Shown in pieces: positions 23,083 to 64,000 of a stretch of 64,000 bases of DNA. Numbering within the stretch: position 1 is the first letter of the stretch; each line of letters begins with the position of its first letter. Source of the stretch: Candidatus Parcubacteria bacterium. Its GTDB lineage: Bacteria > Patescibacteriota > Patescibacteriia > Patescibacteriales > UBA12075. The DNA lies in the NCBI GenBank assembly GCA_023142215.1, contig JAGLJW010000022.1:3315-67314 (forward strand). The letters are read 5' to 3'. Below the pieces are notes generated by a model. It worked only from the letters and a program-made list of their open reading frames with translations, did no database searches and was not told the DNA's origin. The position numbers were made by a program, and so were the translations under genes.

Positions 23083-23093
23083 TAACTTTATAA

Positions 23094-26102: not shown

Positions 26103-26174
26103 AGAAATATATTCAAATTGATAATATTACTTTTATTATATCAAATATTTCAATTAATTAAAAGACCCCTAAAT

Positions 26175-26260
26175 ACCATCATAATTGATAAAACACCAAT
26201 AACAGCTAACAATTAATAATTTAAAACCGTAAAACCTTTTTGTTTATAATTTTCTTTCAT
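26175..26260 (-). pseudogene. Remnant of a pilin N-terminus
   Basis: The minus strand reads ATG AAA GAA AAT TAT AAA CAA AAA GGT TTT ACG GTT TTA AAT TAT TAA (MKENYKQKGFTVLNY*). Out-of-frame LLAVIGVLSIM-like codons follow. Compare pilA, MKKFNNKGFTLIELLVVIAIIGVLSTM. Confidence 0.45.
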
Positions 26261-26289
26261 ATTTATATTATAACATAATTTTTTATATT

Positions 26290-26320
26290 AAAAAACACAG
26301 TCCTCTCTCAAGAACTGTGT
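26290..26320 (-). terminator. Rho-independent terminator downstream of pilA
   Basis: The minus strand has ACACAGT-loop-ACTGTGT followed by TTTTTT. It lies 15 nt after the pilA stop. Confidence 0.65.
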
Positions 26321-26334
26321 TTTGTATAAAAAAA

Positions 26335-26892: not shown

Positions 26893-27070
26893 TCATTTTT
26901 CACCATCCTTTCTATTATTTCATAATTCTTTTTGGCTTAATTCTAGAAATTAAAACAACAAGAAATGTGAGAAATCAATTAAAAATTAAAATATAAACCT
27001 CAACAATTAGATATTTCAAAAATACTATTTTTTAATTTTTATATTTTAATTTTCAAACTTAGTTATCCAC

Positions 27071-27105
27071 ATTATACCATGAATTGACAAAAGTTTAAAA
27101 TTAAA
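27071..27105 (-). promoter_or_regulatory. Candidate pilA promoter (extended -10, TGGTATAAT on the minus strand)
   Basis: The plus strand reads ATTATACCA at 27071-27079. A weak -35 (TTTAAA) lies 17 nt upstream. This would give a leader of about 175 nt. Confidence 0.3.
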
Positions 27106-28311: not shown

Positions 28312-28395
28312 TGAATCACAAAATTGTCATTTCTAATTGAATTCAGGATAAACTTAGTGTTTATTCCTCGCAATGACAAAGATTATATATTAAAT

Positions 28396-29412: not shown

Positions 29413-29432
29413 TTTAACTAAAAAATAAATAA

Positions 29433-31172
29433 TTAATCTTTCATAACTCTTAAAATTTCATCAATAGTTGTGAAACCTTGCAAGACTTTAATTATACCGT
29501 CCTGCTTCATTGTGATATATTTTTGACTATCATTAACATCTTCAATCGTAATATTTTTTTTACCCTCTGCTATTAAACTTTTTATTTTTTTATTAATATC
29601 TAAAACTTCAACAATAGAAATACGACCAATATATCCACTATTACCACAACTATTACAACCTTTGCCTTTATAATGTTTTAAATTTTTAAAATCAATATCC
29701 TTCACCATTTTTTTGATATAATCTCTACCAATCGTTTCTATATTTTCATTAATCTCTTGCATCATCTTTTCTGGAATTTTAAGCTCTTCTTTACACTTTG
29801 GACAAATTCTTCTAGCTAATCTTTGGGCTATGATCGTATTAAGAGTTGAACTAATTAGAAATGGTTCCACTCCCATATCAACAAAACGAGGAATACTCCC
29901 GATAGCACTGGTGGTATGCAAAGTTGATAAAACGGAATGACCCGTTAATGCAGCGTGAATAGCCAACTCGGCTGTTTCTTCATCACGAATCTCTCCAACC
30001 ATAATAACATCTGGATCTTGACGTAAAAAAGATCGCAAACCAGCTGCAAAAGTATAACCGATTTCAGGTTTAATTTGAGATTGATTAACTCCTTTCATTT
30101 GATACTCAACTGGATCTTCAAGTGTAGAAATATTTATCTTATCTTTATTAATAATTCCTAAAACTGAAAATAGAGTTGTTGATTTACCGCTTCCTGTTGG
30201 ACCAGTCACAAGCATCATACCTTCGGTTTTTTTTAAATTATTAATAACCACATCATATTGTATACCTTGAAAACCTAAATCTTCAAGTTTAGGTGCTCCT
30301 TTATCTGTATTTAAAATTCTCATTACTACTTTTTCAGTTTTTATAAGTGGTAAAATTGAAACACGAAAATCAACATCTTTATCATTAATAGTTATACGAA
30401 TTCTTCCATCTTGTGGAATTCTGGTTTCATCTAATTTTAAACCTGCCATAACTTTAATACGAGCCACAATAGCATTATGGACACTTCTTGGTAACACTAA
30501 AGAGGTTCTAAGAATTCCATCAACACGATAACGTACCCTTGTTTCTCTTTGCAAAGGTTCTATGTGAATATCACTTGCCCCACCTTCAACTGCCTGACGA
30601 ATAATTACCGTTACAATTTTAGTAACAGGTGCACTTTTTGACACATTTTTAGCCTTTACCTCCGCCTCTTCTTTCTCTTCTAAAATTAACGCTTCATCTT
30701 CTTCCCTCCTTTGAAGAGCACTTGATAATTCATTGTCAAGAATCTTATATTGCTTAAAAACATTATTAAAACTATCAATTGAAATTACATAAAAATCAAC
30801 ATGCAAACCTCCTCCTTTGGCTAAAAAATCCACCGCCTCAATTGCTTTAAAATTATCAGGATCTGTAATACCTATTTTTATTATACCACTACTTCTAGAA
30901 AAACAAACAATTTTATAATTTTTTGCAACATCAGATGATATTACATTCAGAATCAATGGATCAACCTGCTCTTCAAGTAAACTAACATAAGGCATATGAA
31001 AAATCTCTGCTTTTAGTTTTGCTAATTCTTCGGTCTGTAAAAGCTTTTTATTAACAATAATATTATCAAATTCTTCACCACCACTTATTAACTCATCAAT
31101 TTCTTTTATTTTTTCATCATCAACTAAACCTTTATCTTTTAATATTTTTAATATTTTTACTTTTTTTTGCAT
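29433..31172 (-). CDS. pilB: Type IV pilus assembly ATPase (GspE/PilB family)
   Basis: T2SE N-terminal domain, Walker A GPTGSGKSTT, EDPVEY, DPDVIMVGEIRD, TGHSVLSTLHT, and tetra-Cys CPKC...CNSC. Confidence 0.9.
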   Translation of the reverse strand: MQKKVKILKILKDKGLVDDEKIKEIDELISGGEEFDNIIVNKKLLQTEELAKLKAEIFHMPYVSLLEEQVDPLILNVISSDVAKNYKIVCFSRSSGIIKIGITDPDNFKAIEAVDFLAKGGGLHVDFYVISIDSFNNVFKQYKILDNELSSALQRREEDEALILEEKEEAEVKAKNVSKSAPVTKIVTVIIRQAVEGGASDIHIEPLQRETRVRYRVDGILRTSLVLPRSVHNAIVARIKVMAGLKLDETRIPQDGRIRITINDKDVDFRVSILPLIKTEKVVMRILNTDKGAPKLEDLGFQGIQYDVVINNLKKTEGMMLVTGPTGSGKSTTLFSVLGIINKDKINISTLEDPVEYQMKGVNQSQIKPEIGYTFAAGLRSFLRQDPDVIMVGEIRDEETAELAIHAALTGHSVLSTLHTTSAIGSIPRFVDMGVEPFLISSTLNTIIAQRLARRICPKCKEELKIPEKMMQEINENIETIGRDYIKKMVKDIDFKNLKHYKGKGCNSCGNSGYIGRISIVEVLDINKKIKSLIAEGKKNITIEDVNDSQKYITMKQDGIIKVLQGFTTIDEILRVMKD

Positions 31173-31216
31173 TGTAATAAATTCTTATTATTATGATAAA
31201 TAATACAACGATACAT

Positions 31217-31260
31217 AGGAACTGTCGCCAAATGTCAGCTTAGACATAAATTTTCAGATT
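31217..31260 (-). repeat. Family-B intergenic motif, copy B
   Basis: The plus strand reads GGAACTGTCGCCAAATGTCAGCTTAGACATAAATTTTCAGATTT. It lies about 45 nt upstream of the pilB start. Confidence 0.55.
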
Positions 31261-31310
31261 TTAACAAATTGGTATTTGATGATAATCCTAAACATTAGAA
31301 TTTTAAACTT

Positions 31311-32240
31311 TTAATCAATAAGATCTACTTTATCAACTGTGCCAATTTCATCAACTCTTTTATAAAGAATGCTATTTATTTCTGTTGGTTCCTCTAATCT
31401 TTCTGTTTCTTTTTTATTTAATCCAAATGGATATTTATTTCCAATTTCTAATTTACCTAAATCATCTAATTCCACGTCAATTTCTTCTAAACTTTTAAAT
31501 TTATTAGAACTCAAAACATCAAGATTTAACACTTCCCGCTTATTTCCACCTTCAATTCCTTTGACAATTAAATCTTTATCTTTAAAATAATACGTATTAA
31601 TTGATAAACTTACTTGATTACCAGAAAAAGAAACTGATTGAATATCCATCAATCTTAAATTATTCTCTAACTCAGCTAGTAAACTTTTCAAACTATCATA
31701 ATCAACACCGGAAATTGATATATCCAGGTTAATTATGCCAATGTTTTCACGAATACTTTTTTGAAAATTATCTTCATCTTCACCTTGACTAGCATTAGAA
31801 ACGCCTACATCATTAATTGAAATTGAGTCAAGTATAAGTCCCATTCCTCCATGTATCTGTCCTTCAATGATTTTACCTTCAATGATTTCTTCCATCCATG
31901 GAAAAAACTTCTCAATATTTAATTTATCGGGAACAATGTTTATTATTTTTTCCTTATCCGTCCTATCAATACGTTCATAACTTTTTTTGTAACGCTCAAG
32001 ACTTAAAATATTAATACAAATATCATTCTGTTTTTTTTTCTCTGACATACTTAAAGACAATTGTTTTTCGCTTATACTGTTAAATTTTGGTTTCAAAATA
32101 AAAAAATACGAGAATACTAAAGCTATCACAAAAACAGATAAGATAAGATAACTATAATATCCAGAAAAAAACATAGCTAAGAACTTTGATATTTTTTTAT
32201 TTTTTTGAAAATTACCAATCATCTTTATAATTATTCCCAA
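31311..32240 (-). CDS. Bitopic membrane protein, PilO-like by position
   Basis: 309 aa with a single TM (YSYLILSVFVIALVFSYFFIL). It follows the PilN-like gene with a 10-nt overlap. I recognise no sequence signature. Confidence 0.3.
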   Translation of the reverse strand: MGIIIKMIGNFQKNKKISKFLAMFFSGYYSYLILSVFVIALVFSYFFILKPKFNSISEKQLSLSMSEKKKQNDICINILSLERYKKSYERIDRTDKEKIINIVPDKLNIEKFFPWMEEIIEGKIIEGQIHGGMGLILDSISINDVGVSNASQGEDEDNFQKSIRENIGIINLDISISGVDYDSLKSLLAELENNLRLMDIQSVSFSGNQVSLSINTYYFKDKDLIVKGIEGGNKREVLNLDVLSSNKFKSLEEIDVELDDLGKLEIGNKYPFGLNKKETERLEEPTEINSILYKRVDEIGTVDKVDLID

Positions 32241-33187
32241 TTTATATCTTCAACATTTACTTCTTTCTTGTTGATTATATTTTTATCTTGAATTATTTTT
32301 TCATAATCATTTATTTTTACCTCATCGTCACTTTTGTAAAAAACATTATTATCAACAACAAAATTAACAACAAAATTTACACTACTTGTAACGTCACCAT
32401 CAATATTTTTAATTTGTTCTAACTCGCCCTGTGTCGCTTCCACATCAGAAATAAACTCACCACGTCTTAACACACGTAGTTGATTAGGAATATCTTTATA
32501 TTCTGTAGCCTTAACAGTAAAATTATACTTATTATTACCTATATTTCCATTATAGGAAGCGACATCTCCATAATATACATTGTTTAAAGTATTGTCCTCT
32601 ATTTCTTTAAAAAAATTAGTCCAATAAATGTGTTTATCTAAATACAATTTCACTATTCCAGCTCTTCTTCTAAATACATCCACTTCAACAATTGATTTTT
32701 TAATTTCTTTAAATTTGTTATTTAGTTTTAAGGTTTCTTTTGATAATTTTTCAGCTTCATCACTGGCCTTTTTGGAAACACTGTTAATTCCATAATAAGA
32801 ACCTCCAACTAAAACAAAAAATATAAAAATATAAACTATTGAAATAATAATATTCTTCTGCCAATCAATATAAACTACAACTTCATTTTTAATCAAATTT
32901 GTCTGAATTACACCAGACGATCTCCATTTTTTAACTTTTTCTACTAACTTTTCTTTACGCGAACTTATTTTCTTAAAAGAAGAATCTTCCTGCACGCTAG
33001 GTGAATTCTCTTTTTTCTTCTGCTCGTTTTTTAAGCTTTCATTATAATTTTTGATATATTCCTTATTTTCTTTATTTCTTGCAAAATAATCTTGCTTTTT
33101 CCTTTTTTTTCTTTTTAAAAATCCAAAAATTCCTTTAGAATTTTTGTTTTCAATATTATTATCAACATTATTATCAATAAAATTCAT
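32231..33187 (-). CDS. Bitopic membrane protein, PilN-like by position, with a long K/E-rich cytoplasmic N-terminus
   Basis: 318 aa with a single TM (IIISIVYIFIFFVLVGGSYYGI). It lies directly downstream of pilM. Confidence 0.35.
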   Translation of the reverse strand: MNFIDNNVDNNIENKNSKGIFGFLKRKKRKKQDYFARNKENKEYIKNYNESLKNEQKKKENSPSVQEDSSFKKISSRKEKLVEKVKKWRSSGVIQTNLIKNEVVVYIDWQKNIIISIVYIFIFFVLVGGSYYGINSVSKKASDEAEKLSKETLKLNNKFKEIKKSIVEVDVFRRRAGIVKLYLDKHIYWTNFFKEIEDNTLNNVYYGDVASYNGNIGNNKYNFTVKATEYKDIPNQLRVLRRGEFISDVEATQGELEQIKNIDGDVTSSVNFVVNFVVDNNVFYKSDDEVKINDYEKIIQDKNIINKKEVNVEDINWE

Positions 33188-33211
33188 TTTTTTAGATTAT
33201 TAATAAATTTT

Positions 33212-34249
33212 CTACTTATCAAAACCTCTCATTGCTAATCCAATAGAAACAGCCATTTTAGCCCCAATCTCATTCAATAAAGGTTTTATTTCTTCTGGAC
33301 ATAATACTCTCGCCCACGGATTACCTATAATAACATTAATATCAAGCTCACTGCTTAAATAGTCAACCAAGCCAGATAATAATGAAGAACCACCAGATAA
33401 AATAATTTTTTCAACTTTTTTATCTCCCTTTTCAAAAAGTTCTATAGCGTATCTTATTTCATTTACTACAGGACTAATAGTATCTTTAATTGTTTGCGGA
33501 ATAACATCAGAGCTAGAATCCATTGAATTAATCCCGAGATCATATTTAAATTGTTCTGCTCGTTCTAGACCAATATTCAAATTATTTTGAATAGCTCTTG
33601 TTATTGTCTCACCTCCTGTATCAATACTTCTTGAAAAAACAGGAATACCATTATCAACTATTGAAACATCGCTAGTCGTAGCACCAATTTCAACTAAAGC
33701 AATTGAAGATTCATCATTACCAACAATTGACCGAACCAAAGAAAAAGTCTCTGTTTCTAAAAACAATAAATTCATTTTAGCCTCTTTGAAAATTTCCATC
33801 TGTTTATTAACCAAAGATCTTGGGGCTCCAATTAATAATATTCTATTACCCTTTTCATCTGAATTATTTTTCAATTCTCGCCAATCAATACTCATTTCTT
33901 CAAGTGGAAGTGGAATTACTTTTTTCGCCTCCCAGTGAACTGCTGAATCAAAATCTTTTTTTGGAATATCAGGAAGATTAATGATGGAAGAAAAAACTGA
34001 AAAAGTTGGCAAAGCAGAAACTACATTTCGAGATTTAATCCCAGATCTGCCACAAATTTCATTAATTATTTTGGCTATATATTTAACATCATTCTTCCAA
34101 TCAATATTATTATTGCTAATGTTTTCACTAAAACCATAACTAACAAGTTTTGGTCTTGATCTTTCTTTTTTTAATTCCACAATTTTTATTCCGCTTGTAC
34201 CAATATCAATACCAACATAACTTGTAGATGTTGAAGAAAAAAAACCCAT
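33212..34249 (-). CDS. pilM: Type IV pilus assembly protein PilM (actin-like ATPase fold)
   Basis: VGIDIGTSGIKIVEL, IGATTSDVSIV and LSGGSSLLSGL. Confidence 0.85.
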   Translation of the reverse strand: MGFFSSTSTSYVGIDIGTSGIKIVELKKERSRPKLVSYGFSENISNNNIDWKNDVKYIAKIINEICGRSGIKSRNVVSALPTFSVFSSIINLPDIPKKDFDSAVHWEAKKVIPLPLEEMSIDWRELKNNSDEKGNRILLIGAPRSLVNKQMEIFKEAKMNLLFLETETFSLVRSIVGNDESSIALVEIGATTSDVSIVDNGIPVFSRSIDTGGETITRAIQNNLNIGLERAEQFKYDLGINSMDSSSDVIPQTIKDTISPVVNEIRYAIELFEKGDKKVEKIILSGGSSLLSGLVDYLSSELDINVIIGNPWARVLCPEEIKPLLNEIGAKMAVSIGLAMRGFDK

Positions 34250-46471: not shown

Positions 46472-47815
46472 TTATAACAAATTTATAATATTGTCTAATT
46501 TTTTAATTTTATTCAACTTAATTTTTTTCGCGACTAAATCCATATCTGGCATAATGACTTGTTTAAAACCAAGTTTTGTAATTTCTGTTAATCTTTCTTT
46601 TATTTTTGCTACTCTTCTAACTTCACCGCCTAAACCAACTTCTCCAAAAACTACCGTATCAACACTCATACCTCTATTTAACATAGCCGAAGTAATAGCC
46701 ATACAAACTGCTAGATCTAATGCCGTATCATTTATCTTTGCACCACCGACAATATTTAATATTACATCTTGATTAATCAAATTTAACCCTACTCGTTTCG
46801 TAAGCACAGCAGTCAATACTTGCAAGCGATTTAAATCAAATCCAGAAGCTTTACGCTGAGGATAACCAAATACTGTTTTAGTTACCAAGGCCTGAACTTC
46901 AACTAAAAATGGTCTTGTGCCTTCCATGACGCAACTTGTAATTGAACCAGGTAAAATTTCATTTTTTTCTTCTAAAAATATTTGAGATGGATTTAATACT
47001 TCTTTAAATCCACTTGAAGTCATTTCAAAAATTCCCATTTCATTTACTGAACCAAAACGATTTTTTTTAGCTCTTAAATAACGATAATCGTGTGCTCTGT
47101 CGCTTTCAAGGTGAATTACAGTATCCACCATGTGTTCTAGAGTTTTTGGACCAGCAATTTGTCCGTCTTTTGTAATATGTCCAGCAAGAATTACAGAAAT
47201 ATCACCACTTTTTGCAAGCTCTAAAAATTTAGCCGTACAGGCTCTAATCTGATTAACACTTCCAATATCAGAAGGAGATTCTCCAGAATATATAGTTTGA
47301 ATTGAATCAATGATAACAAGCGACGGAGATTCTTTTTTTATTGCTGATATAATTTTTTCTGTATTAATTTCAGAAATAAAATTAATATTTTCTGTATTAC
47401 AATTGAGTCTAACCAAACGAGCTTTAACCTGTGCAGCAGATTCTTCACCGCTGATATATATAACGCCTTTTTCAGAAACAGCATCAGCAATTTGAGCTAA
47501 TATCGTTGATTTTCCTATTCCTGGTTCACCTGAAATTAAAATTAAAGAACCAGGAACAATTCCGCCACCAAAAACACGATCCACTTCTTCAATTCCTATT
47601 TTTATTCTTTTTAATTTTTGCGACTCAATATCACCTAAATTTATTACTTTAGCAGGAACAACAGAATCTAATTTCTTTTTCTCTTGTATCCTTTCATCAA
47701 TTACCTCTTCTTGCAATGTGCCCCAAGATCCACATTCTAAACAACGCCCACTCCATTTCTGGAACTGGGCATCGCATTTTGTACATATAAATAATTGTTT
47801 AACTTTTCTCTTCAT
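46472..47815 (-). CDS. radA: DNA repair/recombination protein RadA (Sms)
   Basis: Zn finger CTKCDAQF...CLECGSWG, Walker A GEPGIGKST, KNRFG motif and a Lon-protease-like C-terminal domain. Confidence 0.95.
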   Translation of the reverse strand: MKRKVKQLFICTKCDAQFQKWSGRCLECGSWGTLQEEVIDERIQEKKKLDSVVPAKVINLGDIESQKLKRIKIGIEEVDRVFGGGIVPGSLILISGEPGIGKSTILAQIADAVSEKGVIYISGEESAAQVKARLVRLNCNTENINFISEINTEKIISAIKKESPSLVIIDSIQTIYSGESPSDIGSVNQIRACTAKFLELAKSGDISVILAGHITKDGQIAGPKTLEHMVDTVIHLESDRAHDYRYLRAKKNRFGSVNEMGIFEMTSSGFKEVLNPSQIFLEEKNEILPGSITSCVMEGTRPFLVEVQALVTKTVFGYPQRKASGFDLNRLQVLTAVLTKRVGLNLINQDVILNIVGGAKINDTALDLAVCMAITSAMLNRGMSVDTVVFGEVGLGGEVRRVAKIKERLTEITKLGFKQVIMPDMDLVAKKIKLNKIKKLDNIINLL

Positions 47816-48563
47816 TCTGTTTTAATTCAATCTCAATAATTTTTTCTAAATCTTCAAAATTAATTGTTCCAAATATTTCCTGATCATTAACATAAACAAA
47901 AGGAATTCCAGTAATATCCAAAGCATTAGCCTCAAGTATATTATCTCGTATTCTTGTTCGTCCACGTTCTTCATCTAAACATTTTTCAAACTCAGATACA
48001 TCTAAATTTAATTGCTTAGCAAGCGATAAAAATATTCCCTTACTTAAACTATTATTATTTTCAAAAAGCAAGTCATGATACTCCCAAAACTTATCTTGAT
48101 CTTGAGCACATCTGCCAGCCAAACTCGCTCTATATTGTTCAGAAGTAATTTTACTATCTGGATAATCTTTCCAAATTATTCTAACATTATCTTTATATTT
48201 TTCAATAATTTTATTTAAAACTTTTTCTTGATCTCTACAATAATCACATTTAAAATCAGAAAAATAGACTATATTTACAACTGCTTCATAATTTCCAATA
48301 CTAGGATCTAAATTAGTAATAATAGGACCTCTTAACATATCTCTAAGTTGTGGATTTCTAGTTATGAAAGGATCTTGACGAAAATTTTCATTTAAATAAT
48401 AAGTACCATCTAAATTTTTCTCAACTTTTTGTACTTTATTAAAATAAATTATTTGATTTAAATTTAAAAAAACACCAGATAAAAATATAATAATAAAAGC
48501 CGAAATAGATGCAATTACAAAAATAGAGCTAGAAAATTTTTCTTTTTTAAAAAAATTATACAT
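47799..48563 (-). CDS. DsbA-family thiol:disulfide oxidoreductase, membrane-anchored, intact CDYC active site
   Basis: N-terminal TM, FSDFKCDYCRDQ (CXXC), and GIPFVYVND (cis-Pro loop region). Its last 17 nt overlap the radA start. Confidence 0.75.
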   Translation of the reverse strand: MYNFFKKEKFSSSIFVIASISAFIIIFLSGVFLNLNQIIYFNKVQKVEKNLDGTYYLNENFRQDPFITRNPQLRDMLRGPIITNLDPSIGNYEAVVNIVYFSDFKCDYCRDQEKVLNKIIEKYKDNVRIIWKDYPDSKITSEQYRASLAGRCAQDQDKFWEYHDLLFENNNSLSKGIFLSLAKQLNLDVSEFEKCLDEERGRTRIRDNILEANALDITGIPFVYVNDQEIFGTINFEDLEKIIEIELKQNEEKS

Positions 48564-49253: not shown

Positions 49254-51176
49254 TTATATATCCATATCTTCAACACCCTCTAACGCCTTATCGTCACTAA
49301 TAGTTGCAGCAAATTCTTTTTTTGCTTCTTCAATAGCTAATAACTGTCTTGGATCAGATGTTATTAACTGATCTTCAGTGTATGAAGCAACCACTTTTAT
49401 GGCTGCATGTTTACTCCCTGCAAAAAATATTCCCTCTCCAACTCCACACTCAAGCAACAAATACTTTTCACCTTCTGTCAATAAGAATGTTTTTTGCACC
49501 AAATCAATTGAAGCTGAAGATTGTTTCAATAAAAGTTGTAAAGATGAATTTGTTACAATTGCCTGTCCGTATGGCGAAGTTAAAAAATCATTAACATCCT
49601 GAGTAATTGTAGTAACACCTAAGTAATATTTACGGCACCGTTTTACTAAAGCAAAAATAAATTTAGCACTGTCTTCGTGTTGCATCAACCACCAAGCTTC
49701 ATCAATTACCAAAATTCTCTTTCTCATCTCACTTCTAACAACATTCCAAATATAATTAACAATAGAATAAATTGCCAATGGTCTAAGCTCATCTTCTAAA
49801 TCTCGTACTGAAAAACAAACTAACTTATTATTCATTTCCACATTCGTTGGATTATTAAATAAACCAGCAAAAGTACCTTGTGTATATTTTAATAAACGTA
49901 AAGACAAACTCTCGCCGCCCTCCATTCCCTCTAAAATATCTTGAAAATCTTGCATAATAGGTGCTTCAATACTAGCTAAATCAACATCGGCAGTAATATC
50001 TTTTTTTGCATAAGTTTCCAATAAAGCTCTATCAATAATAGAATCTTCTTCGTGATTTAAATCACCAAGCATTAATCTTATTAAACCTTTCACTGTAATC
50101 ACAGCACTTCTAATAATATCAGCTGGCCTAGAATCGTCTCCAATTGAACGAGGCAAATCAAATGGATTAACCTTAGCATCAGAAGAAAGAGACAAATTGA
50201 TGTATGTTCCACCAACAGCGTCAGAAAGATGTTTATACTCATATTCAGGATCAATAATAATCACTTCTGTACCAGTCATTAATGCTCGTAAAATTTCTAA
50301 TTTTATGGCATAACTTTTACCAGCACCTGATGTTGCAAACACAACAGAATTGGCATTCTGTAAGCTGAATCTGTCAAACAAAATTAAACTATTATTATGT
50401 CTATTAATACCATACAAGACACCTGTATCAGAAGTTAATTCAGAAGAAATAAAGGGAAATGACGAAGCAACAGGAGAAGAATTCATATTTGAATTAATAA
50501 ATAATTCATCATTACAAAGAGGTAGCGTTGAATTAAATCCTTGTTCGGCTTGATAAAGTACTTTTCTTGAATAAACTAGACGAGAACCAAAAATATTTTC
50601 CACATCTATTGTTAAAATATCAAGATCTTCCTTTTTATTTGAATAAACTGTTACATATAAACCAAACTGGAAAAATCTTTCAATTCCCTGTGTTAAAGCA
50701 TCTCTCAAGGCTTCAATATCGCGAAGAGCTGTTTCGGATAATGGATCACGAGCAGCACCTTTCTCTGCATTTCCAATAATTTCAGCCTCAAGAGTACCAA
50801 CCTTTTTCTTCAACTGCTTTAACACAATCGCTGTCTTTATTGGATAAAAAAACATGGCAATATCAAAAGTTGTATTTAAATTAATAACTGGCGCAAACCA
50901 ACCAACACTAATATAACGCGGATATGTAATAACAAAAATTGTTCTAACAAAAACACCAGATAAAACAAGATGATCAGTGGAAATTTTCATGCTCGCGGGA
51001 GCAATCAAATCTTTTATCATCACTGTACCTCTACGATACATTTTCTCTTCTTCAATAAATCTCTTAGTTTCCCGTGCTGAAACATTAATAACTTTTTCTT
51101 GTTCAGCTTTTTTACTATTTTCTACTTTCTGTTTTAACTTATCTTCTTTTTTAATTTGACTCGGTTGAAATGCCAT
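49254..51176 (-). CDS. virB4: VirB4/TrbE/TcpF-type type IV secretion ATPase, C-terminal 640-aa part
   Basis: IAPASMKIS...RTIFVITYPRYISVGWFAPVINL, Walker A ATSGAGKSYAIK, and Walker B ILVIDEAWWLM. Confidence 0.8.
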   Translation of the reverse strand: MAFQPSQIKKEDKLKQKVENSKKAEQEKVINVSARETKRFIEEEKMYRRGTVMIKDLIAPASMKISTDHLVLSGVFVRTIFVITYPRYISVGWFAPVINLNTTFDIAMFFYPIKTAIVLKQLKKKVGTLEAEIIGNAEKGAARDPLSETALRDIEALRDALTQGIERFFQFGLYVTVYSNKKEDLDILTIDVENIFGSRLVYSRKVLYQAEQGFNSTLPLCNDELFINSNMNSSPVASSFPFISSELTSDTGVLYGINRHNNSLILFDRFSLQNANSVVFATSGAGKSYAIKLEILRALMTGTEVIIIDPEYEYKHLSDAVGGTYINLSLSSDAKVNPFDLPRSIGDDSRPADIIRSAVITVKGLIRLMLGDLNHEEDSIIDRALLETYAKKDITADVDLASIEAPIMQDFQDILEGMEGGESLSLRLLKYTQGTFAGLFNNPTNVEMNNKLVCFSVRDLEDELRPLAIYSIVNYIWNVVRSEMRKRILVIDEAWWLMQHEDSAKFIFALVKRCRKYYLGVTTITQDVNDFLTSPYGQAIVTNSSLQLLLKQSSASIDLVQKTFLLTEGEKYLLLECGVGEGIFFAGSKHAAIKVVASYTEDQLITSDPRQLLAIEEAKKEFAATISDDKALEGVEDMDI

Positions 51177-51179
51177 AAA

Positions 51180-51869
51180 TTATTTTACAACTTTTAATTG
51201 ATTAATATCAACTAATTTTTGATTCTTTGATGTTTCTGGATTATATGAATTATAATAAAGTTCAATTAAGCTCTGTGTGTCAAGTTGTACTGAATGTAAA
51301 CCGATAGAACCTAAACCATTTTGCACCCTAGTAACACGGGTCATCATCTTTACCTTTCTTTTCTTAAACTTTTTCTCTTTCATTCTAATTATAATAGCAG
51401 GTTTAAATAACTCTGAAAATCTATTTACAAATGATTTTTGATTATCAGTCAAAGGATTATATGGAATTGCCACATAAAATCTCTTGTTCATTATGCTACT
51501 TATTGAAACTAATTCATTAATATATTGAATGTATTCAGACGTTTGCATTTTTAACAATTCATTAGTTTGCTCTTTTTCTTTCTCTTCTAATTCTTTTAAA
51601 TATCTCTCAATATTCAATTCACGAGATTGAATCACAATCTGTATAGGAAATTCAACACTATTTAAAAAACCAACATAGGCAGAAATTGTTGCATTTTGTT
51701 CATCTTCATTTTTTAAAGAAAAATTTATACTAGAAACTAAAAGGATTGCCCTAAGTGTTCCATCACGCATGACAACAACGTCTTCTTTTATTTCAGAAAT
51801 ATCCAAAAACTGCTGAGTTGTTGTACTTATATGTTTTCTAGCTAATTTTTGCTTTTTGTCACTACTCAT
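51180..51869 (-). CDS. virB4: VirB4 N-terminal domain encoded as a separate 229-aa ORF, in frame with the ATPase part
   Basis: TTQQFLDISEIKEDVVVMRDGTLRAILLVSSINFSLKNEDEQNATISAYVGFLNSVEFPIQIVIQS fits the N-terminal pattern of Gram-positive VirB4 proteins (Orf16/TcpF/PrgJ-like). Its stop at 51182-51180 is followed by one codon (TTT) and then the ATG at 51176-51174, all in one frame. Confidence 0.55.
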   Translation of the reverse strand: MSSDKKQKLARKHISTTTQQFLDISEIKEDVVVMRDGTLRAILLVSSINFSLKNEDEQNATISAYVGFLNSVEFPIQIVIQSRELNIERYLKELEEKEKEQTNELLKMQTSEYIQYINELVSISSIMNKRFYVAIPYNPLTDNQKSFVNRFSELFKPAIIIRMKEKKFKKRKVKMMTRVTRVQNGLGSIGLHSVQLDTQSLIELYYNSYNPETSKNQKLVDINQLKVVK

Positions 51870-51914: not shown

Positions 51915-52394
51915 CTAAATTTTTTTATTATGTAAACTAATTTTAGTTTCGTCATCTTTTTCTCCTTTATATACACCTTGAGTGTCAACCATTAATGCCA
52001 ACTCATTTAATCTTGATGATGTACGTGTTCTATCATCATTAATAACCTCAACTTTAACATTTTCTATAGCATCACTATTTTCTACATTGTCTTTTCCGAA
52101 CGAATTATTCCATACTCTAGTTTTTGGACTTTTATTAGTTTGTATAAAATTTAATACAAAATAATGAAAAGGCATTTCATCAACTTTATAAAATGCAAAA
52201 ATAGCAGAAATAATTAATTCTGGAATTACAATAGCTAAAAAAGTTGAAAAATAAGTAAGTTTATATACTGCAGCAGCAAATAAAACAGCACCAATCATAA
52301 TTAAAAATTGTCTAGTCGTAATAGGCCCTAAAATTTTATCTTCAACATCAATAAATTGTGGTACTGTAAATTGTTGCATAATTATTTGACTCAC
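51915..52394 (-). CDS. PrgI-family (VirB3-like) small membrane protein
   Basis: QQFTVPQFIDVEDKILGPITTRQFLIMIGAVLFAAAVY matches the PrgI-family N-terminal pattern, followed by a second TM. Confidence 0.6.
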   Translation of the reverse strand: MSQIIMQQFTVPQFIDVEDKILGPITTRQFLIMIGAVLFAAAVYKLTYFSTFLAIVIPELIISAIFAFYKVDEMPFHYFVLNFIQTNKSPKTRVWNNSFGKDNVENSDAIENVKVEVINDDRTRTSSRLNELALMVDTQGVYKGEKDDETKISLHNKKI

Positions 52395-57659: not shown

Positions 57660-58277
57660 TTAGTTAAATATCCAACCAAATATTTTTTTACCTATCCAAG
57701 GAAGTGGTCCACCACTTTTCGCCATATCTACAGTAGTTTCTATGGCTGTTTCTTTTGTAGCTTCTATAATGACATCCGCTGAATGTGCAAACATATATAC
57801 AACTATTATTATAATAGTAATAATAGCCATAAAGAAAAGTGCAAGCAATAAATCTAAAAGCGCTATTCCTATTTTATCACCTAATCTTAATTTAACTTTA
57901 TTACTAAAACAAGATCCTGCAGCTACTACATGTAATCCAATAAAACCAGGAACAAATCCCATAAACGACGCTGTAAGTATCCATAACTTATTCATCAAAA
58001 CGCCAGTTGACTTCTTTTTTAATTTATTCGCACCAAGACTTTTTTCTAATAAAACCTTTTTTGACTTAATTATTCTCTCTGATGCTTTTCTTCCTTCTTG
58101 AATTGATTTATTTTTATTAACTGCTGTAATCTGTTCTCTGATATCATTATTTACAACATTTTGTTCTTGCTCTCTTCTTTCGCTAGCTCGTTCTTCTTGT
58201 ATTTGGCTAGAAACTTTATTTTCATGATTAAAAAATAATAATCTCTCATCTATAGAATTGAACGAATTATTTGACAT
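57660..58277 (-). CDS. Hypothetical membrane protein (hydrophilic N-terminal ~100 aa plus two TM helices)
   Basis: 205-aa ORF with LWILTASFMGFVPGFIGLHVVAAG and IALLDLLLALFFMAIITIIIIVVYMF. A VirB2-like role is possible but unsupported. Confidence 0.5.
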   Translation of the reverse strand: MSNNSFNSIDERLLFFNHENKVSSQIQEERASERREQEQNVVNNDIREQITAVNKNKSIQEGRKASERIIKSKKVLLEKSLGANKLKKKSTGVLMNKLWILTASFMGFVPGFIGLHVVAAGSCFSNKVKLRLGDKIGIALLDLLLALFFMAIITIIIIVVYMFAHSADVIIEATKETAIETTVDMAKSGGPLPWIGKKIFGWIFN

Positions 58278-58285
58278 AGTTTTTA

Positions 58286-61200
58286 TTAATTTTCTGCAAC
58301 AATAATATAAACATCAGACTCTACATAACTATCTTCACAAATATCAGTTACTACTGGACAATGATCATCCATTCCACAAATACCACCATAAACACCAGCT
58401 AGATTACGACATTGTTTTCTTGGTAAGCATGGTCTTGTATTAATACCTTCGCTACACCAACCCCAATTATCCATTATTTTTACTTTTGGCTTAACAATAC
58501 AATAATTCAATGTAGGAGCCACTGGTAATGTTATGGTTGATGCACCACCAAAATTAGGTGCTACCATATTTCCAGCATCAGCACAATAAATAATGTTCTC
58601 CTCTAAGGTACCCTGATCTACAGAATGTTGTGATTTTAAATCCCAATAACTATATAAATGATAAAAAGAGTGCGGATTGTTAGCATTAGATCTATCACGC
58701 ATTTCAACGCCTGTTACAACAGTTCTATTGCTATCTCCCCAGTCAACAGAATATAATATTAAAGGCAACTGTTGACTATTAACAATACTATTAAATGTAA
58801 GATTCACAAAACCATTTTTATGTAAAGTAGTGTTCACATTTAATCCATTTAATTTAATATTTCTTATTTCTGGTGGATAAGCACAATATTCAATTGGAGA
58901 CAACTCTCTAGTGGAACTAGCACATACATTAATCGGAGGAGACCATTCAGGCACAGACGAATCAGGTAAATATCTTAATGTATTTGACACACAATCACCA
59001 CCACCTGGAGCACAATAATTATCTCCTGGCGTTAAACTACTATCACATAAAATGTCAACATTGGTCCCTGTGGCACATTTAGCTAATACGTTAGGAATAC
59101 AATTCCCGCCAGGACAACAAGCCATATTAATATCAGCGGGACATCCCCAACCATTGATTGACGTTCCTACACCATTAGTATCAAAACATCCGAGACAGTC
59201 ACCAACACACTCTGCACCAATTAATTCCCCAGCATCACAATAATTACCAGCTGGTATTACACATGTACTGTCAGGACATTGCGGAGCACAACCTCCCTGC
59301 ATAATATCTCCATTATTAGTACCACCAATACATTCGTAAGTCTGATTCCATGTCCAATGACCGTAGCTTTGTGCAAAAAGTTTTTTCAAGGCACTTTCAG
59401 CTTCAATGGTAGTTGTATATGGATTTACTTGATAAACATTAACAAATTCCTGCGGAATTTTACAATCACCAGTTGTTCCAATACAAGCATAAGGGCTTCC
59501 TGCTCTCGCTTTAAGAGCAGGAAGATCAACAACTAATGGCTGAAATCCTGGAAGATTTTCATTACTATCCCATTCATGTGGATTAGAAACTACACTCCAA
59601 TAATCTTGAGATTTATAGTCAACTGGAGGAACAATAGAGCCAAACGGATTATAATCTGTAGAATAAGTATAATTAAGAAAAGGCACCATATAATCACTTC
59701 CTTTATAAACTCGCCCACTCCAAAATTTATTTTTCCCCGTTGAGGTTACTAGCTGTACAATTTTATCACAATAATCATCTCTGGCATAAATTTGAACTCT
59801 GCCACCAGGACACATACAATATCCATTAGAATTTACAAATTTAATACTAGTTAAATAATCATCATTATTAAAATAAAAAGTACCTGTTATATTACCAACT
59901 GTTACTGGTATAGCAGGATCATCTCCTGGATCATTAAAAGTCCAATTACCGCTACCATGCTTCCCACAATGATTTTTATGTGCACAATGAGTATATTCCA
60001 TAAAAATATTAACACTATGCAATTTCCATCTCTTTATATACTCCTCTGGTTTTAAGTCAAAAATTACACTTACCACCTTACTATTCACAAAAACTCTATT
60101 AACCATTAACTGAGATCGACCTATAGCAAGTTGACAATAATAAACAGGAAATCTGTCTAAATATCCAGCCCCTTCTTCAATCCCTTCTCCTTTTACCTTA
60201 TCAATAGGATACCAAAGTAAACATGTATCTTTATCTCCTGGATATTTGTCATATTCTAAACAATAACCATGCCAACCTTTTTTCATAATACCTGAGTCTT
60301 CATAATAATTACAAGAAAGTGCATTACCTTCAGGATAAAGACGACAAGATTGTTCAACATATTCTTCGAAAACACTTGTACTTATTTTTTTTGTAGCTAA
60401 AACAGGACGTATTTTCATATCATCAATATAAACATTTCCAACACACGAATCACCTCTCGCCTCAATAGGAAAAATACCACCACCACCAAAAGTACAACCC
60501 CAAGCGGTAGTATCTAAATTAGTAACTCCACGAGACGCACATGTAGCATTTGGAGAAAATGCCCTGTTTAATGGATCAGTACAATTCGGATCCGGACCAG
60601 CAACTTTTTGGCAACACTGTGCAGAAAGATAAATTTTACCATAGCCTGTTATTTTAATCTTCTTTGTATTACCACCAACGATAAACTTAATTTGTTCTTC
60701 AGTCCAGTCAAGCCCTCCTTGGAAATTAATACCACATCCATTATACCAAGTTTGTTTTTGTTCATCACCATTCTGATTTACACATTGAATTAAATCAACA
60801 CCTGAACCAGGATGTGCACTACTTCCAACTGGCGTACCAGTAGCACTAAAAGTTGAAATGAGCAGTGAAAGAACTAAAGTATCAACACCATCTCCTTTTT
60901 TAAAATTTAAAGTATTTGCTTTAACTGAAAGGGTATATTCTGCACCTGGTTCAACATCTATGAATTCAGAAACAATATCGCCCTCTGCTGGAGAATACTT
61001 TAGAAAAGATTCCCCCGAAACAGGATAATCAATACCTTCAACCTGAGCAGAATATGGATTATTAATTACTGAAAATTTATTTTCATTCCAACCTTGCTGT
61101 GCTGATAGCCAACCAACAGGATAAAAATCTGCACCATACAATTCAAAATTTCCATTTGATATCATCGCAATTTCACCAAGTTGTTCCATGTTTCCTAAGG

Positions 61201-64000
61201 GATATAAATCAGACTCCAATGAACCATCTTTTAGTCCAACTTTGCTATAACCAGAATAATTAGCATATTTACCAGAATATGGCAAAACATAACTTTGATT
61301 TTCTTTTTTAGTTAATTCAAAGCTATCACAATTACCTTCATTGTCTAAACTATTACATAAACTAATATCAAAACATTTGTTGCCGCCATCATCATCATCT
61401 TTTAAATAACTTCTACAGGCTAGCCAAGACTCACAAGCCCTATCTGGACTGACTTTAAATAAAGCGTTAGAATCACAATTACCTGGAGTACAACTTTGTG
61501 GTGAAAGATTAATAATGTCCGCATCATAAATTAACTCCGCATAATTCAAACCACTAAAAGCTCTTTCATTAAATAAAACACACCCTTCATTTATATTTAC
61601 AACACCATTACAACTTGTTCTGTCCACTTCTTGTTTTAATTGATATTCAATGATAAGTTCTTTAAGAATTACTTCTGACCCATTATTGTGTGCTGTATTT
61701 GTAACTAACATTGTAGCCATGCCACCATTTTGAACATAAAAGACAGAACCTGAAACAACGCCTCCAACATTAACAAAACCGACAGAATTTAAAGAATTAT
61801 CATCTTGCAAATGGAAGATAGGAGCAAAAGTAACAGTAGCTGTATTCACGCCAGCAACACTTATTTTATATAAAGTATTGTCTTTTAGATACACAGTCTG
61901 ATTACCAGCAACCGTCCAACCATCAGACTGACCATTAACATCAAGATCTTGTGAAAAATCACTATTAAATAAAATATTAGAGCTAAAACTTGCAGCAGAA
62001 TCAACATATTCAGTACAACCAGATTCTGATATTGGACATAAACCTACCCAATCATTTGTAGGCTGACCTATTTTAACACCATTATATCCAAAAGTTTTAT
62101 TATAAGCTATATTAGGAGCACATTCAATATCAGTTTTATTATCCTCCAAGATACAGCTATGAAAACACATCCCCGCAATACATTTATTGTAAGTATTGAC
62201 ACCACCACAATCTGAATCTGAATCACACACTATTGGTAATATTGGATTATTACAATCTGTATGTTTTAAGCAATAATTCGTTTCTTGCAAATTACCAATA
62301 GCATTAAAATCAATTACACCATTATCGGCTGCACCTGCACCAAACCCATCATCACATCTTTTTACTCGTTTGGTATACCAATCTTGCCCCGTATTATCAC
62401 TATAACCTTTACGATGCTCACAAATTTTATCACCTGGATTTATAAAATACGTTTCACCTTCAGTCTCGCTGAGCCAACTTTCACAACCTTCATAACCACC
62501 CATACACAAAATACTATTATAAATATCTGGATCATTAATTAAATAAGTATTTTTATGAACTTCTTGTCCATCATAATTTACAACTTGACCTAATCGTTCA
62601 CATCCTTTTTCAGTTTCAAAACAAGATTTTTCTGGATTATAAACCACATATACAAATTTATCTTTTTGCGTAGTTTGACTCATAGTTACAACGGTACCTG
62701 TTGCTATTGAATTATGAGTATCAATCATCATTTCACAACCAATAGAAGAATCCTGACAAAGTTGGTCAAATCTTCTTAAATAAGAAATATCACTATCCCT
62801 ATCATAATAACCAGCGCAACCTAAATTCCATTCTGGTCCTTGATATTCATCAAAAATATCATCATAACAAGAATCAGGAATTTGTGATGAATTTTTAATA
62901 AGATAATATCTGTCAGAAATAGCTATTAAACGAATACTGTCAATATGAAATCCCGTATTAGCACCAATATAAAGCATCTCACCTGTAGTACTAGCTATAT
63001 AAGTACTGCTAGCATTATTAAAATCATCTAAATTAAACTCATAAAATCTCCATTCTCCAGCCTTTAAAGTCTTACTTTCTATTCCACCTAAATTAAAAGA
63101 AATATATTTATCTGGATTAGCTGGATCTGTACCAAAACGAATATAATCAAAGTTTCCAGAAACTCCAGCAGGCTTAGCTAAAAAACTAATTATATAAGCT
63201 TGGTTTGTTTGTACAATATTACTAACATTTTTAGAAGTTAGATTAATACCACCAACACTTAAAGAACTTTCACCAGAAACTAATGAATCAGCTGTTATAG
63301 CACCATTACTCCATCCAGATACATGACCAGATTCAAAATCATCCTCAATAATTACTTTTACATTTGCTCCTAGATTTCCACTATATTCACGACAACCATC
63401 TTGACTTGCACTACACATCTCACCCTCTCTTGGAATTGCCAAATAAATACAAGATTGATGAATCACATCCCAATATCCACCATTTATACAAGAAATACAT
63501 TCACCAGAAACTCCCGAACTTTGCCAACATTTATCACTACCTTGAGAAAGATTATTATCGCATGCTAAACCACCATTACAATCCACGCTAGCAACCGAAG
63601 GGTCAACATTAACCTCAGTTCGTCTATAGGGATGACAATCATTGGAACAAGTTATAGTATGATGAACAAATTTATAGGCAATATCACCATTCTGATTATA
63701 AAACTCACGACACATTGGATTAGTTAATAAATCATACGTTGAACTAGCACACGTTTGCCCTTTGTAATAATTACTATACACTTCAGGATAATTACTGCCA
63801 TCGTCCTCCAAAACATGAGAAACAATCTGTAAACCAGATTCAGCCGAACCTTCCCATGTATAAAAAATAGAACAATTTACATTCGGAATAACTTCAGAGG
63901 TAGTAGTACATTGCTTCATGTATGTATAATACTCAATGTTTTCACCGCCATCATCTACAGCATCTAAATTAGTAAATTGATCACAACCAGCCGCTTCCGA
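58286..64000 (-). CDS. Giant cysteine-rich extracellular protein with three CBM4_9-like jelly-roll modules; 5' end lies beyond the window
   Basis: The ORF track starts it at the Met at 63919. The 27 codons upstream (SEAAGCDQFTNLDAVDDGGENIEYYTY) are in frame with no stop, so the ORF is open to nt 64000. I counted about 89 Cys in the 1877 listed residues by hand. Lectin-like blocks: IEDDFESGHVSGW...FHIDSIRL, NSDFSQDLDVNGQSDGW, and ISNGNFELYGADFYPVGW...VYIDDMKIRPV. Confidence 0.8.
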   Translation of the reverse strand, partial: SEAAGCDQFTNLDAVDDGGENIEYYTYMKQCTTTSEVIPNVNCSIFYTWEGSAESGLQIVSHVLEDDGSNYPEVYSNYYKGQTCASSTYDLLTNPMCREFYNQNGDIAYKFVHHTITCSNDCHPYRRTEVNVDPSVASVDCNGGLACDNNLSQGSDKCWQSSGVSGECISCINGGYWDVIHQSCIYLAIPREGEMCSASQDGCREYSGNLGANVKVIIEDDFESGHVSGWSNGAITADSLVSGESSLSVGGINLTSKNVSNIVQTNQAYIISFLAKPAGVSGNFDYIRFGTDPANPDKYISFNLGGIESKTLKAGEWRFYEFNLDDFNNASSTYIASTTGEMLYIGANTGFHIDSIRLIAISDRYYLIKNSSQIPDSCYDDIFDEYQGPEWNLGCAGYYDRDSDISYLRRFDQLCQDSSIGCEMMIDTHNSIATGTVVTMSQTTQKDKFVYVVYNPEKSCFETEKGCERLGQVVNYDGQEVHKNTYLINDPDIYNSILCMGGYEGCESWLSETEGETYFINPGDKICEHRKGYSDNTGQDWYTKRVKRCDDGFGAGAADNGVIDFNAIGNLQETNYCLKHTDCNNPILPIVCDSDSDCGGVNTYNKCIAGMCFHSCILEDNKTDIECAPNIAYNKTFGYNGVKIGQPTNDWVGLCPISESGCTEYVDSAASFSSNILFNSDFSQDLDVNGQSDGWTVAGNQTVYLKDNTLYKISVAGVNTATVTFAPIFHLQDDNSLNSVGFVNVGGVVSGSVFYVQNGGMATMLVTNTAHNNGSEVILKELIIEYQLKQEVDRTSCNGVVNINEGCVLFNERAFSGLNYAELIYDADIINLSPQSCTPGNCDSNALFKVSPDRACESWLACRSYLKDDDDGGNKCFDISLCNSLDNEGNCDSFELTKKENQSYVLPYSGKYANYSGYSKVGLKDGSLESDLYPLGNMEQLGEIAMISNGNFELYGADFYPVGWLSAQQGWNENKFSVINNPYSAQVEGIDYPVSGESFLKYSPAEGDIVSEFIDVEPGAEYTLSVKANTLNFKKGDGVDTLVLSLLISTFSATGTPVGSSAHPGSGVDLIQCVNQNGDEQKQTWYNGCGINFQGGLDWTEEQIKFIVGGNTKKIKITGYGKIYLSAQCCQKVAGPDPNCTDPLNRAFSPNATCASRGVTNLDTTAWGCTFGGGGIFPIEARGDSCVGNVYIDDMKIRPVLATKKISTSVFEEYVEQSCRLYPEGNALSCNYYEDSGIMKKGWHGYCLEYDKYPGDKDTCLLWYPIDKVKGEGIEEGAGYLDRFPVYYCQLAIGRSQLMVNRVFVNSKVVSVIFDLKPEEYIKRWKLHSVNIFMEYTHCAHKNHCGKHGSGNWTFNDPGDDPAIPVTVGNITGTFYFNNDDYLTSIKFVNSNGYCMCPGGRVQIYARDDYCDKIVQLVTSTGKNKFWSGRVYKGSDYMVPFLNYTYSTDYNPFGSIVPPVDYKSQDYWSVVSNPHEWDSNENLPGFQPLVVDLPALKARAGSPYACIGTTGDCKIPQEFVNVYQVNPYTTTIEAESALKKLFAQSYGHWTWNQTYECIGGTNNGDIMQGGCAPQCPDSTCVIPAGNYCDAGELIGAECVGDCLGCFDTNGVGTSINGWGCPADINMACCPGGNCIPNVLAKCATGTNVDILCDSSLTPGDNYCAPGGGDCVSNTLRYLPDSSVPEWSPPINVCASSTRELSPIEYCAYPPEIRNIKLNGLNVNTTLHKNGFVNLTFNSIVNSQQLPLILYSVDWGDSNRTVVTGVEMRDRSNANNPHSFYHLYSYWDLKSQHSVDQGTLEENIIYCADAGNMVAPNFGGASTITLPVAPTLNYCIVKPKVKIMDNWGWCSEGINTRPCLPRKQCRNLAGVYGGICGMDDHCPVVTDICEDSYVESDVYIIVAEN

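Follow-up and report, generated by a model that had tools for sequence, protein, structure and literature searches.

The one envelope machine that a cultivated Patescibacterium has been shown to need for growing as an epibiont is its type IV secretion system (T4SS), which in the Saccharibacterium Southlakia epibionticum is encoded by a cluster that is like Gram-positive conjugative systems, has neither relaxase nor coupling protein, and includes a VirB2-like pilin array (PMC10633639). A survey across Patescibacteria found that their VirB4 proteins form a sister clade of MPF-FATA and listed homologues of VirB3, VirB6, TrsD, VirB1, VirB8, and VirB2, with no detection of an adhesin such as the MPF-FATA protein PrgB (PMC12102498), and a 2025 T4SS review gives the same picture of the Patescibacteria systems (PMC12857230). 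The present study analyzes a 64,000-nt stretch of a Candidatus Parcubacteria bacterium genome (contig JAGLJW010000022.1, positions 3,315 to 67,314; hereafter the window), at one edge of which lies a giant, cysteine-rich gene encoding a protein that we call P0001. Judged from its sequence and genomic context, P0001 is not an orphan adhesin but the product of the conserved lead gene of a T4SS operon in a large uncultured lineage. The locus is like the described Patescibacteria T4SS (Southlakia SEML1_0006-0019; Quinonero-Coronel et al. 2025) in being chromosomal, relaxase-less, and of monoderm type, with VirB4, PrgI/VirB3, and TrsD/TraC-like proteins and a candidate VirB6, but differs in that those systems are marked by VirB2-like pilin arrays. 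We found no mention, in published accounts of Patescibacteria T4SS loci, of a giant Cys-rich lead gene bearing carbohydrate-binding modules (CBMs) or of a DsbA within the operon, nor did a literature search return a description of the giant Cys-rich CBM-bearing family.

Several other systems invite comparison. PrgB-type adhesins (MPF-FATA, pCF10) are likewise large exported proteins encoded with a monoderm T4SS (VirB4, PrgI/VirB3, VirB6-like), and the likeness would be one of functional analogy, in that P0001 would bind partner-cell polymers and promote contact in the role given for PrgB (PMC12102498). P0001 differs in being Cys-rich with CBM-like domains, in the lack of any detected sequence or fold relationship (searches of Pfam, NCBIfam, and PDB with P0001 gave no match to a PrgB adhesin or Ig-like domain), and in that just 1 of 120 relatives shows an LPxTG-like motif. 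Extended VirB6 proteins of the Rickettsiales (Anaplasma VirB6-4, 4,322 aa) also place a huge hydrophilic extracellular mass at the VirB6 position (PMC7648143, PMC12857230), but there the mass is fused to VirB6, whereas here it would be a separate Sec-exported protein beside an already extended, 805-aa VirB6-like protein. The FhaB/DUF2341 giants of Patescibacterium danicum and the giants of Vampirococcus lugosii are very large predicted surface proteins proposed for host attachment (PMC11809585, PMC8080830), but they have other domain content, no full-length homologues elsewhere, and no reported T4SS link; the P0001 family, unlike these, is conserved over its full length in ~1,200 clusters and is syntenic with a T4SS. 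The giant proteins of P. danicum, Vampirococcus, and Omnitrophota were considered as members of the same family and rejected as belonging to different ones. At the level of domains, P0001 resembles the CBM4/9/22 modules (PF02018; Paenibacillus barcinonensis Xyn10C CBM22, 4xup/4xuo), each a beta jelly roll of ~150-175 residues that starts with N-x-[SDG]-F-E...G-W and ends with [FY]-[IF]-D-D-[IV], but has no recognizable glycoside hydrolase attached, has four copies spaced by conserved disulfide-type hairpins, and has Cys-stapled loop insertions in the third in-window copy.

The giant gene and its type IV secretion operon

On the minus strand a frame without a stop runs from nt 64000 down to the stop codon at 58286-58288, and counted from the first in-window Met (63919) the open reading frame (ORF) at 58286..63919 encodes 1,877 aa. 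An earlier note on this DNA had proposed that the frame continues past the window edge into a larger protein whose signal peptide lies off-window, and this is what was found on L001, a 16.7-kb contig of the same population that was reached via the 205-aa neighbor gene and has 2 nt mismatches to the window in 12 kb. The complete gene is uninterrupted there (L001:1428-9992; 8,565 nt, 2,854 aa), with its start and signal sequence ~2.85 kb past the window edge, and its product is named in NCBI only as hypothetical protein KAI92_02070 [Candidatus Parcubacteria bacterium]. P0001 residue numbers equal those counted from Met 63919 plus 977. By inspection the N-terminus, MYNFLKNRIFKIGIIVFIIFGFVFFLGNKKMVSADA followed by FGG, is signal-peptide-like and of Sec type, with a basic n-region, a 19-residue hydrophobic core, and a cleavage-type site between VSA and DA; an N-terminal hydrophobic segment is likewise present in 99 of the 105 full-length relatives, and an additional transmembrane-like segment in only 8. 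The exported protein would have a size of ~300 kDa. The G+C content of the giant gene (33-34%, window 58001-64000) is above the 26-30% seen across most of the window, which probably comes from its Gly-, Cys-, and Asp-rich composition and not from transfer; window-wide, the GC skew is strongly negative and nearly all genes lie on the minus strand.

The giant gene is the large gene at the head of a tightly packed operon whose members share one strand (Table 1), and in which the intergenic gaps from the giant gene through the gene for a DsbA-like oxidoreductase are 8, 14, 3, 121, 42, 45, 3, 37, and 23 nt. Between the DsbA-like gene and the start of radA there is an overlap of 17 nt (47799-47815), and the cluster may be co-transcribed into this housekeeping gene. 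The 805-aa polytopic protein encoded two genes downstream of the giant gene matched Pfam TrbL at E 1.2e-3 (19 bits vs a cut-off of 25.9), and its Falkowbacteria orthologue gave a match to TrbL_3 described as weak. Directly upstream of the giant gene, beyond the window edge, is a 227-aa gene (L001:722-1405), probably of the same operon, that is found upstream in 42 of 53 related loci with orthologues in L005-L086. Its product carries a single membrane anchor (aa 35-65) together with two calcium-binding repeats of TSP3 type, DSDSDGLSDYDE and DTDSDGILDKDE.

This arrangement is conserved far beyond the window. At the locus of the Falkowbacteria orthologue (38% identity) gene order is identical, including the upstream 227-aa gene, the TraC-like homologue of the 229-aa protein, and the terminal DsbA. 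Linkage was counted over 81 species-level loci: of the 57 that have at least 3.5 kb of downstream sequence, 53 carry a VirB6-like gene after the giant gene in the same orientation, and VirB4 is found within 10 kb on the same strand in 24 of 36, a figure to be read with some VirB4-negative loci (e.g. L007, L020, L034) in which cluster genes lie far downstream, so that VirB4 may exceed the fetched flank. Linkage is kept even where the C-terminal domain of the giant protein is just ~25% identical (L076, L079-L084, L086). The earlier note had read the protein as a candidate adhesin or host-recognition factor, and that reading is strengthened because the giant gene leads a conserved T4SS operon that also encodes a DsbA.

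Cysteine pattern and jelly-roll domains

The in-window ORF contains exactly 89 Cys in its 1,877 residues (4.74%), the number that had been estimated by hand, compared with a mean of 0.87% in the other 47 minus-strand window ORFs of at least 100 aa. Three Cys-free or Cys-sparse blocks had also been described, and they are borne out at residues 177-350, 636-769, and 865-1045 (numbered from Met 63919). When positions for the 89 Cys were drawn at random along 1,877 residues, the largest gap averaged 104 residues and at least three gaps of at least 135 residues arose in only 7 of 100,000 placements (7e-5), a rarity that argues for the alternation of Cys-dense and Cys-free segments as a real feature. 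Of the 118 Cys in the full protein, an even number (74) are kept in at least 80% of relatives when 70 sequences at 35-50% identity are aligned, most of them in pairs with a spacing of 4-13 residues; consecutive conserved pairs separated by at most 13 residues number 32. A hairpin-like motif, C-x5-GC-x-[YFWLM], occurs nine times (e.g. CDMLDDGCHEF, CSASQDGCREY, CPISESGCTEY); four copies stand directly before jelly rolls 0, 1, and 2 (aa 621, 677, 1146, 1605) and the remainder within the Cys-rich spacers, and every jelly roll is flanked by conserved, closely spaced Cys pairs. The proposal that the protein is disulfide-stapled fits this pattern, as mostly conserved close pairs are what staples would be expected to leave in sequence.

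The Cys-dense strings quoted in the earlier note, together with its N/D-F-E...GW and [FY]-I-D-[DS]-x-[KR] motifs, are all present, but the strings are not features of the family. ECVGDCLGCFD and MACCPGGNCIP both fall inside an insertion at aa ~2500-2640 with occupancy of 0.17-0.49 among the 70 aligned relatives, and the third, the CDSDSDCGG...CFHSC insertion, is common to ~30% of relatives; these densest Cys runs are lineage-specific loop insertions. Variability between relatives is concentrated in the jelly-roll cores (column identity 0.25-0.35) and these Cys-rich insertions, which have the lowest column identity, versus 0.4-0.5 in the Cys spacers and 0.55-0.73 in the highly conserved N-terminal region (aa 100-600).

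The Cys-free blocks are, on sequence profiles and predicted structure, soundly assigned to the CBM4/9/22-type jelly-roll fold, in keeping with the lectin-like jelly rolls of the earlier note. P0001 has four of them, one off-window (block 0, aa 690-840) and three in-window, and the blocks are paralogous, since a hidden Markov model (HMM) built on block 0 picks up block 1 (3e-6) and block 2 (2e-3). With a family profile run on PDB sequences, blocks 0 and 1 matched the CBM22 of Xyn10C (4xup, E 2e-5) and block 3 the CBM70 of hyaluronate lyase (4d0q, E 1.2e-4); the CBM4 of laminarinase (1gui, E 2e-3) and CBM16 were also matched. An AlphaFold2 (AF2) model of aa 951-2030 from 31 sequences was poor overall (mean predicted local distance difference test score, pLDDT, 57.8), with higher values over the three in-window blocks (Table 1), which are all-beta. 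Foldseek comparison of this model with PDB gave 90 matches at E <= 1e-3, the best-ranked mostly CBMs and CBM-like receptor-binding domains: the top match was the CBM22 4xup_E (E 3e-8, TM-score 0.71 on the target, 165 columns), followed by a porphyran-binding CBM, CBM16, CBM4, and CBM-like receptor-binding domains (iota-toxin Ib, CDTb, Cry/Vip toxins). These matches come from the whole model, with no query range, and no match is assignable to a single block. CBM_4_9 or laminin-G matches, which the earlier note had suggested looking for, occur among relatives, where precomputed PF02018 matches of unstated strength are recorded for 60 of the best 120 (described as faint for P0027) and a few have Laminin_G_3 or MAM matches instead; P0001 itself stayed below threshold. 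With the full protein all matches in Pfam and NCBIfam were sub-threshold, namely CBM_4_9, GtfA_EBD, and GTA_spike_fiber (the last on block 0, NCBIfam), and a PHROGs search with the full protein returned nothing. Foldseek matches to phage tails and tail fibers among viral structures had very high root-mean-square deviation (rmsd) and were read as generic multi-jelly-roll resemblance, not phage origin; a match to eukaryotic Elapor1 (rmsd 27 A) rests on low-confidence regions and was disregarded.

Between and after the jelly rolls the in-window part shows further order. The small beta-rich domain has conserved Cys pairs at 981/993, 1034/1047, and 1068/1072, and the CSASQDGCREY hairpin is the one that immediately precedes jelly roll 1. 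Spacer 1 contains conserved hairpins at aa 1365, 1410, 1449, and 1605 in addition to the CDSDSDCGG...CFHSC insertion. The third block described as Cys-sparse is a jelly roll as supposed, but its loops are interrupted at aa ~2023-2040 and ~2075-2130 by insertions that contain Cys and are lineage-specific, both of which come before its final strand, GNVYIDDMKIRP. For the C-terminal domain (aa 2636-2812), a Pfam scan of 18 members and a profile search against PDB sequences gave no match; a PKD-like fold for its VDWGD/HLYSYWD motifs was considered and, having no support in either search, set aside.

Family distribution and neighboring features

A word-indexed search found 222 relatives of P0001. 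The best 120 of these all have E < 1e-140, are nearly all 2.4-3.1 k aa long, and are named just hypothetical protein, from bins assigned to Parcubacteria, Falkowbacteria, Magasanikbacteria, and the Patescibacteria group. In an exhaustive search of 50%-identity cluster representatives, 1,201 proteins matched at E <= 1e-3, of which 819 reached E <= 1e-30, and a scan of one genome per species found the C-terminal domain in 139 species, with titles that name Falkowbacteria, Uhrbacteria, Kerfeldbacteria, Buchananbacteria, and Parcubacteria. NCBI taxonomy places Falkowbacteria within the Parcubacteria group of the Patescibacteria group, and the candidate phyla that carry the family probably fall within GTDB class ABY1.

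Among the loci there were several departures from the usual arrangement. In some distant relatives (L072, L076, L077, L080) the giant gene is present as two adjacent ORFs of ~1,400-1,600 aa each with the VirB6-like gene still next; these may truly be two genes, or the split may be an artefact of assembly or a frameshift. Two members are longer by ~1,000 aa than the norm (L062, 3,809-aa ORF; L085, 3,482-aa ORF). Many third-party annotation (TPA) bins with the giant gene and VirB6/VirB4 are titled uncultured Gammaproteobacteria bacterium (L014, L015, L017, L018, L020, L032, and ~20 more loci; L017 encodes exactly P0025), and these titles look like placeholder or wrong taxonomy. In Falkowbacteria bin B7_G4 (QMNH01) the C-terminal domain of the family occurs on each of three contigs (L016, L038, L044), which suggests paralogues or strain mixtures.

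The locus is chromosomal, with LigA, RecG, and RadA as well as a complete type IV pilus cluster in the same window, so that both envelope machines implicated in epibiosis are present. The pilus cluster includes several prepilins that begin with GFTL[IVM]ELLV and have a Cys content of 2.6-3.2%.

Table 1. Features of the giant gene, its operon, and the pilus cluster in the window (aa numbers in the giant protein refer to P0001)
Feature	Coordinates	Strand	Evidence or remarks
Giant protein P0001, C-terminal 1,904 codons (aa 951-2854 of 2,854)	58286..64000	-	ORF and longer contig
Small beta-rich conserved domain (aa ~991-1070)	63641..63880	-	AF2 pLDDT ~75; Cys conservation
Jelly roll 1 (aa 1154-1327), Cys-free, CBM4/9/22-like	62870..63391	-	Profile vs 4xup; sub-threshold Pfam; AF2 pLDDT 70-90
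Cys-rich spacer 1 (aa 1328-1612)	62015..62869	-	Cys alignment; low AF2 confidence
Jelly roll 2 (aa 1613-1746), Cys-free	61613..62014	-	Off-window jelly-roll HMM 2e-3; AF2 pLDDT 61-83, all-beta
Cys-rich spacer 2 (aa 1747-1841)	61328..61612	-	Conserved Cys 1747/1757, 1806/1812, 1826/1832/1841
Jelly roll 3 (aa 1842-2135)	60446..61327	-	Profile vs CBM70 4d0q, CBM16, CBM4; AF2 pLDDT 61-84
Conserved Cys-containing module (aa ~2160-2250; CRLYP...SC...GYCLEYD...CLLWYP)	60101..60373	-	Alignment
Lineage-specific Cys-dense insertion (aa ~2500-2640)	58931..59353	-	Occupancy 0.17-0.49, 70 relatives
Conserved C-terminal domain (aa 2636-2812)	58415..58945	-	Motifs QQLPL, VDWGD, NPHSxYHLYSYWD, KDNWGWC
Small membrane protein, 205 aa	57660..58277	-	Two hydrophobic segments; position conserved, sequence not
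Extended VirB6/TrbL-like polytopic protein, 805 aa	55228..57645	-	~8 hydrophobic segments, then ~475-aa hydrophilic tail
Two conserved genes without assignment, 335 aa and 552 aa	52437..55224	-	
PrgI/VirB3-like protein	51915..52394	-	Pfam PF12666, 46.6 bits vs 27 cut-off
229-aa protein	51180..51869	-	TraC-like match on Falkowbacteria orthologue
VirB4-type ATPase	49254..51176	-	Pfam P-loop_TraG, E 6e-27, 94.7 bits vs 25.8 cut-off
209-aa protein, N-terminal hydrophobic segment	48587..49216	-	Conserved after VirB4
Membrane-anchored DsbA-like thiol:disulfide oxidoreductase, CDYC active site, last cluster gene	47799..48563	-	Thioredoxin_4 E 1e-26, DSBA E 1e-19
Type IV pilus cluster	22615-34249	-	
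PilM	33212-34249	-	
PilB-type ATPase	29433-31172	-	
PilT-like ATPase	28396-29412	-	
PilC	27106-28311	-	
Prepilin peptidase	24863-25678	-	9 Cys

Proposed role and competing explanations

The patterns detected are best accommodated, in our view with a probability of roughly 55%, by P0001 acting as a T4SS-linked host-docking arm, which by analogy would do the work of PrgB or of a VirB2/VirB5 pilus while being homologous to neither. After Sec export, the membrane-anchored DsbA of the operon would oxidize the Cys pairs to disulfides, and these would rigidify a long, protease-resistant, extracellular multi-lectin arm. The conserved N-terminal region would dock the arm to the T4SS, the most plausible partners being the large extracellular part of the VirB6-like protein or the small membrane proteins, and the less conserved jelly rolls and lineage-specific Cys-stapled loops would bind glycans or other polymers of the host envelope, so positioning and holding the T4SS channel on the host. 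P0001 is the best candidate so far for host-cell recognition by the T4SS, a function that we infer. A bolder version, which we offer only tentatively, is that Falkowbacteria-type (ABY1-like) Patescibacteria have a dedicated ~300 kDa extracellular T4SS subunit, a disulfide-rigidified jelly-roll chain with an N-terminal dock of novel fold, that replaces the VirB2/VirB5 pilus or PrgB and sets which host cells are open to the epibiont.

Several observations weigh against a host-docking arm. Pfam CBM_4_9 (PF02018) scores on P0001 only 17.7 bits with the window fragment and 13.6 bits with the full protein, below the gathering threshold of 25.9, and lectin activity of the jelly rolls is putative, being proposed from likeness to CBMs. 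Membership of the operon is linkage and not physical association. On the AF2 models two thirds of P0001, including its best-conserved N-terminal part, have no confident structure: the Cys-rich spacers have pLDDT <50 (31-sequence alignment), and the N-terminal 665 aa have a mean pLDDT of 48.8 (39 sequences), with long helices at aa ~57-310 and values >70 only at aa ~355-455; Foldseek with this N-terminal model found no match (best E 2.3), and the docking proposal is thus pure inference. Cell retention is also assumed, as neither a second membrane anchor nor a sortase anchor was found in P0001 beyond the signal sequence. Re-oxidation of DsbA is a difficulty, given that Saccharibacteria have been noted to lack quinone-based respiration (PMC10633639), a point that is general for Patescibacteria. 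Hypervariability, which the earlier note had suggested looking for, was not seen between samples, but the four contigs of the same population differ from the window by just 0-2 nt and so allow no statement on hypervariability at the population level.

Among alternative explanations, a structural part in the T4SS itself is the nearest, although we consider it unlikely. P0001 would then be an extracellular stalk, cap, or conduit that crosses the wall and the space separating cell and host, replacing the VirB2 pilus arrays of other Patescibacteria classes, with the jelly rolls as scaffold and not as specific lectins. That the VirB6-like gene comes directly after it in 53/57 loci would suit such a part, as would the superior conservation of the N-terminal region (55-73% identity), the steady length of ~2.4-3.1 k aa across ~1,200 clusters, and the finding that VirB2 arrays are abundant mainly in Saccharimonadia and Microgenomatia (PMC12102498), but Pfam, NCBIfam, PDB sequence, and fold searches gave no similarity to known T4SS structural proteins, there was no sign of oligomerization or of a channel, and the variable loop insertions of the jelly rolls suit recognition better than scaffolding. 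More improbable again is an exported enzyme that degrades or remodels wall or polysaccharide, as a VirB1 stand-in or a breacher of the host wall, in which the N- or C-terminal domain would be catalytic and the CBMs would serve in targeting. Against this, no catalytic family was identified by Pfam, NCBIfam, PHROGs, or PDB profile search and the predicted secondary structure of the N-terminal region is mostly long helices, even though CBM4/9/22 modules are typically joined to glycoside hydrolases (the top PDB matches here being CBMs of xylanases, laminarinase, and hyaluronate lyase), VirB1 homologues are rare beside VirB4 in most Patescibacteria classes (PMC12102498), and the conserved N- and C-terminal domains match no known family.

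It is also conceivable, with a low probability, that P0001 is a general surface or S-layer-like coat protein whose adjacency to the T4SS reflects shared regulation or history and not function. Patescibacteria commonly have large surface proteins, for which a generic adhesin role is the usual interpretation (PMC8080830, PMC11809585), and a Sec signal means that the T4SS is not needed for export; set against that is a gene order kept down to ~25% identity over ~80 species-level loci with operon-like spacing, a stability that would be unusual for functionally unrelated genes in streamlined genomes. We give least credence to a toxin-like protein or effector that the host would receive, with jelly rolls as receptor-binding domains as in binary-toxin B components and Cry/Vip. 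The Foldseek matches that prompt this idea, to iota-toxin Ib and CDTb receptor-binding domains and to domains of Cry and Vip toxins (E ~1e-4 to 1e-5), span just ~160 residues of the shared CBM-like jelly roll, Pfam, NCBIfam, and PDB profile searches found no pore-forming or enzymatic toxin domain, and a Sec signal with very strong family-wide conservation is atypical of effectors.

The family that includes P0001 is large (~1,200 clusters at 50% identity), wholly unannotated, and heads a T4SS operon in a major uncultured lineage. If P0001 is a host-docking arm, its variable jelly-roll loops would predict host range, tagged jelly rolls could be used as reagents to fish out or stain hosts in environmental samples, and its N-terminal domain would be a structural target for understanding how a monoderm T4SS spans two envelopes. 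Should the more tentative idea of a dedicated giant subunit also prove correct, the family would represent a new class of T4SS component and would offer, for the first time in an uncultured class, a way to approach host range from sequence.

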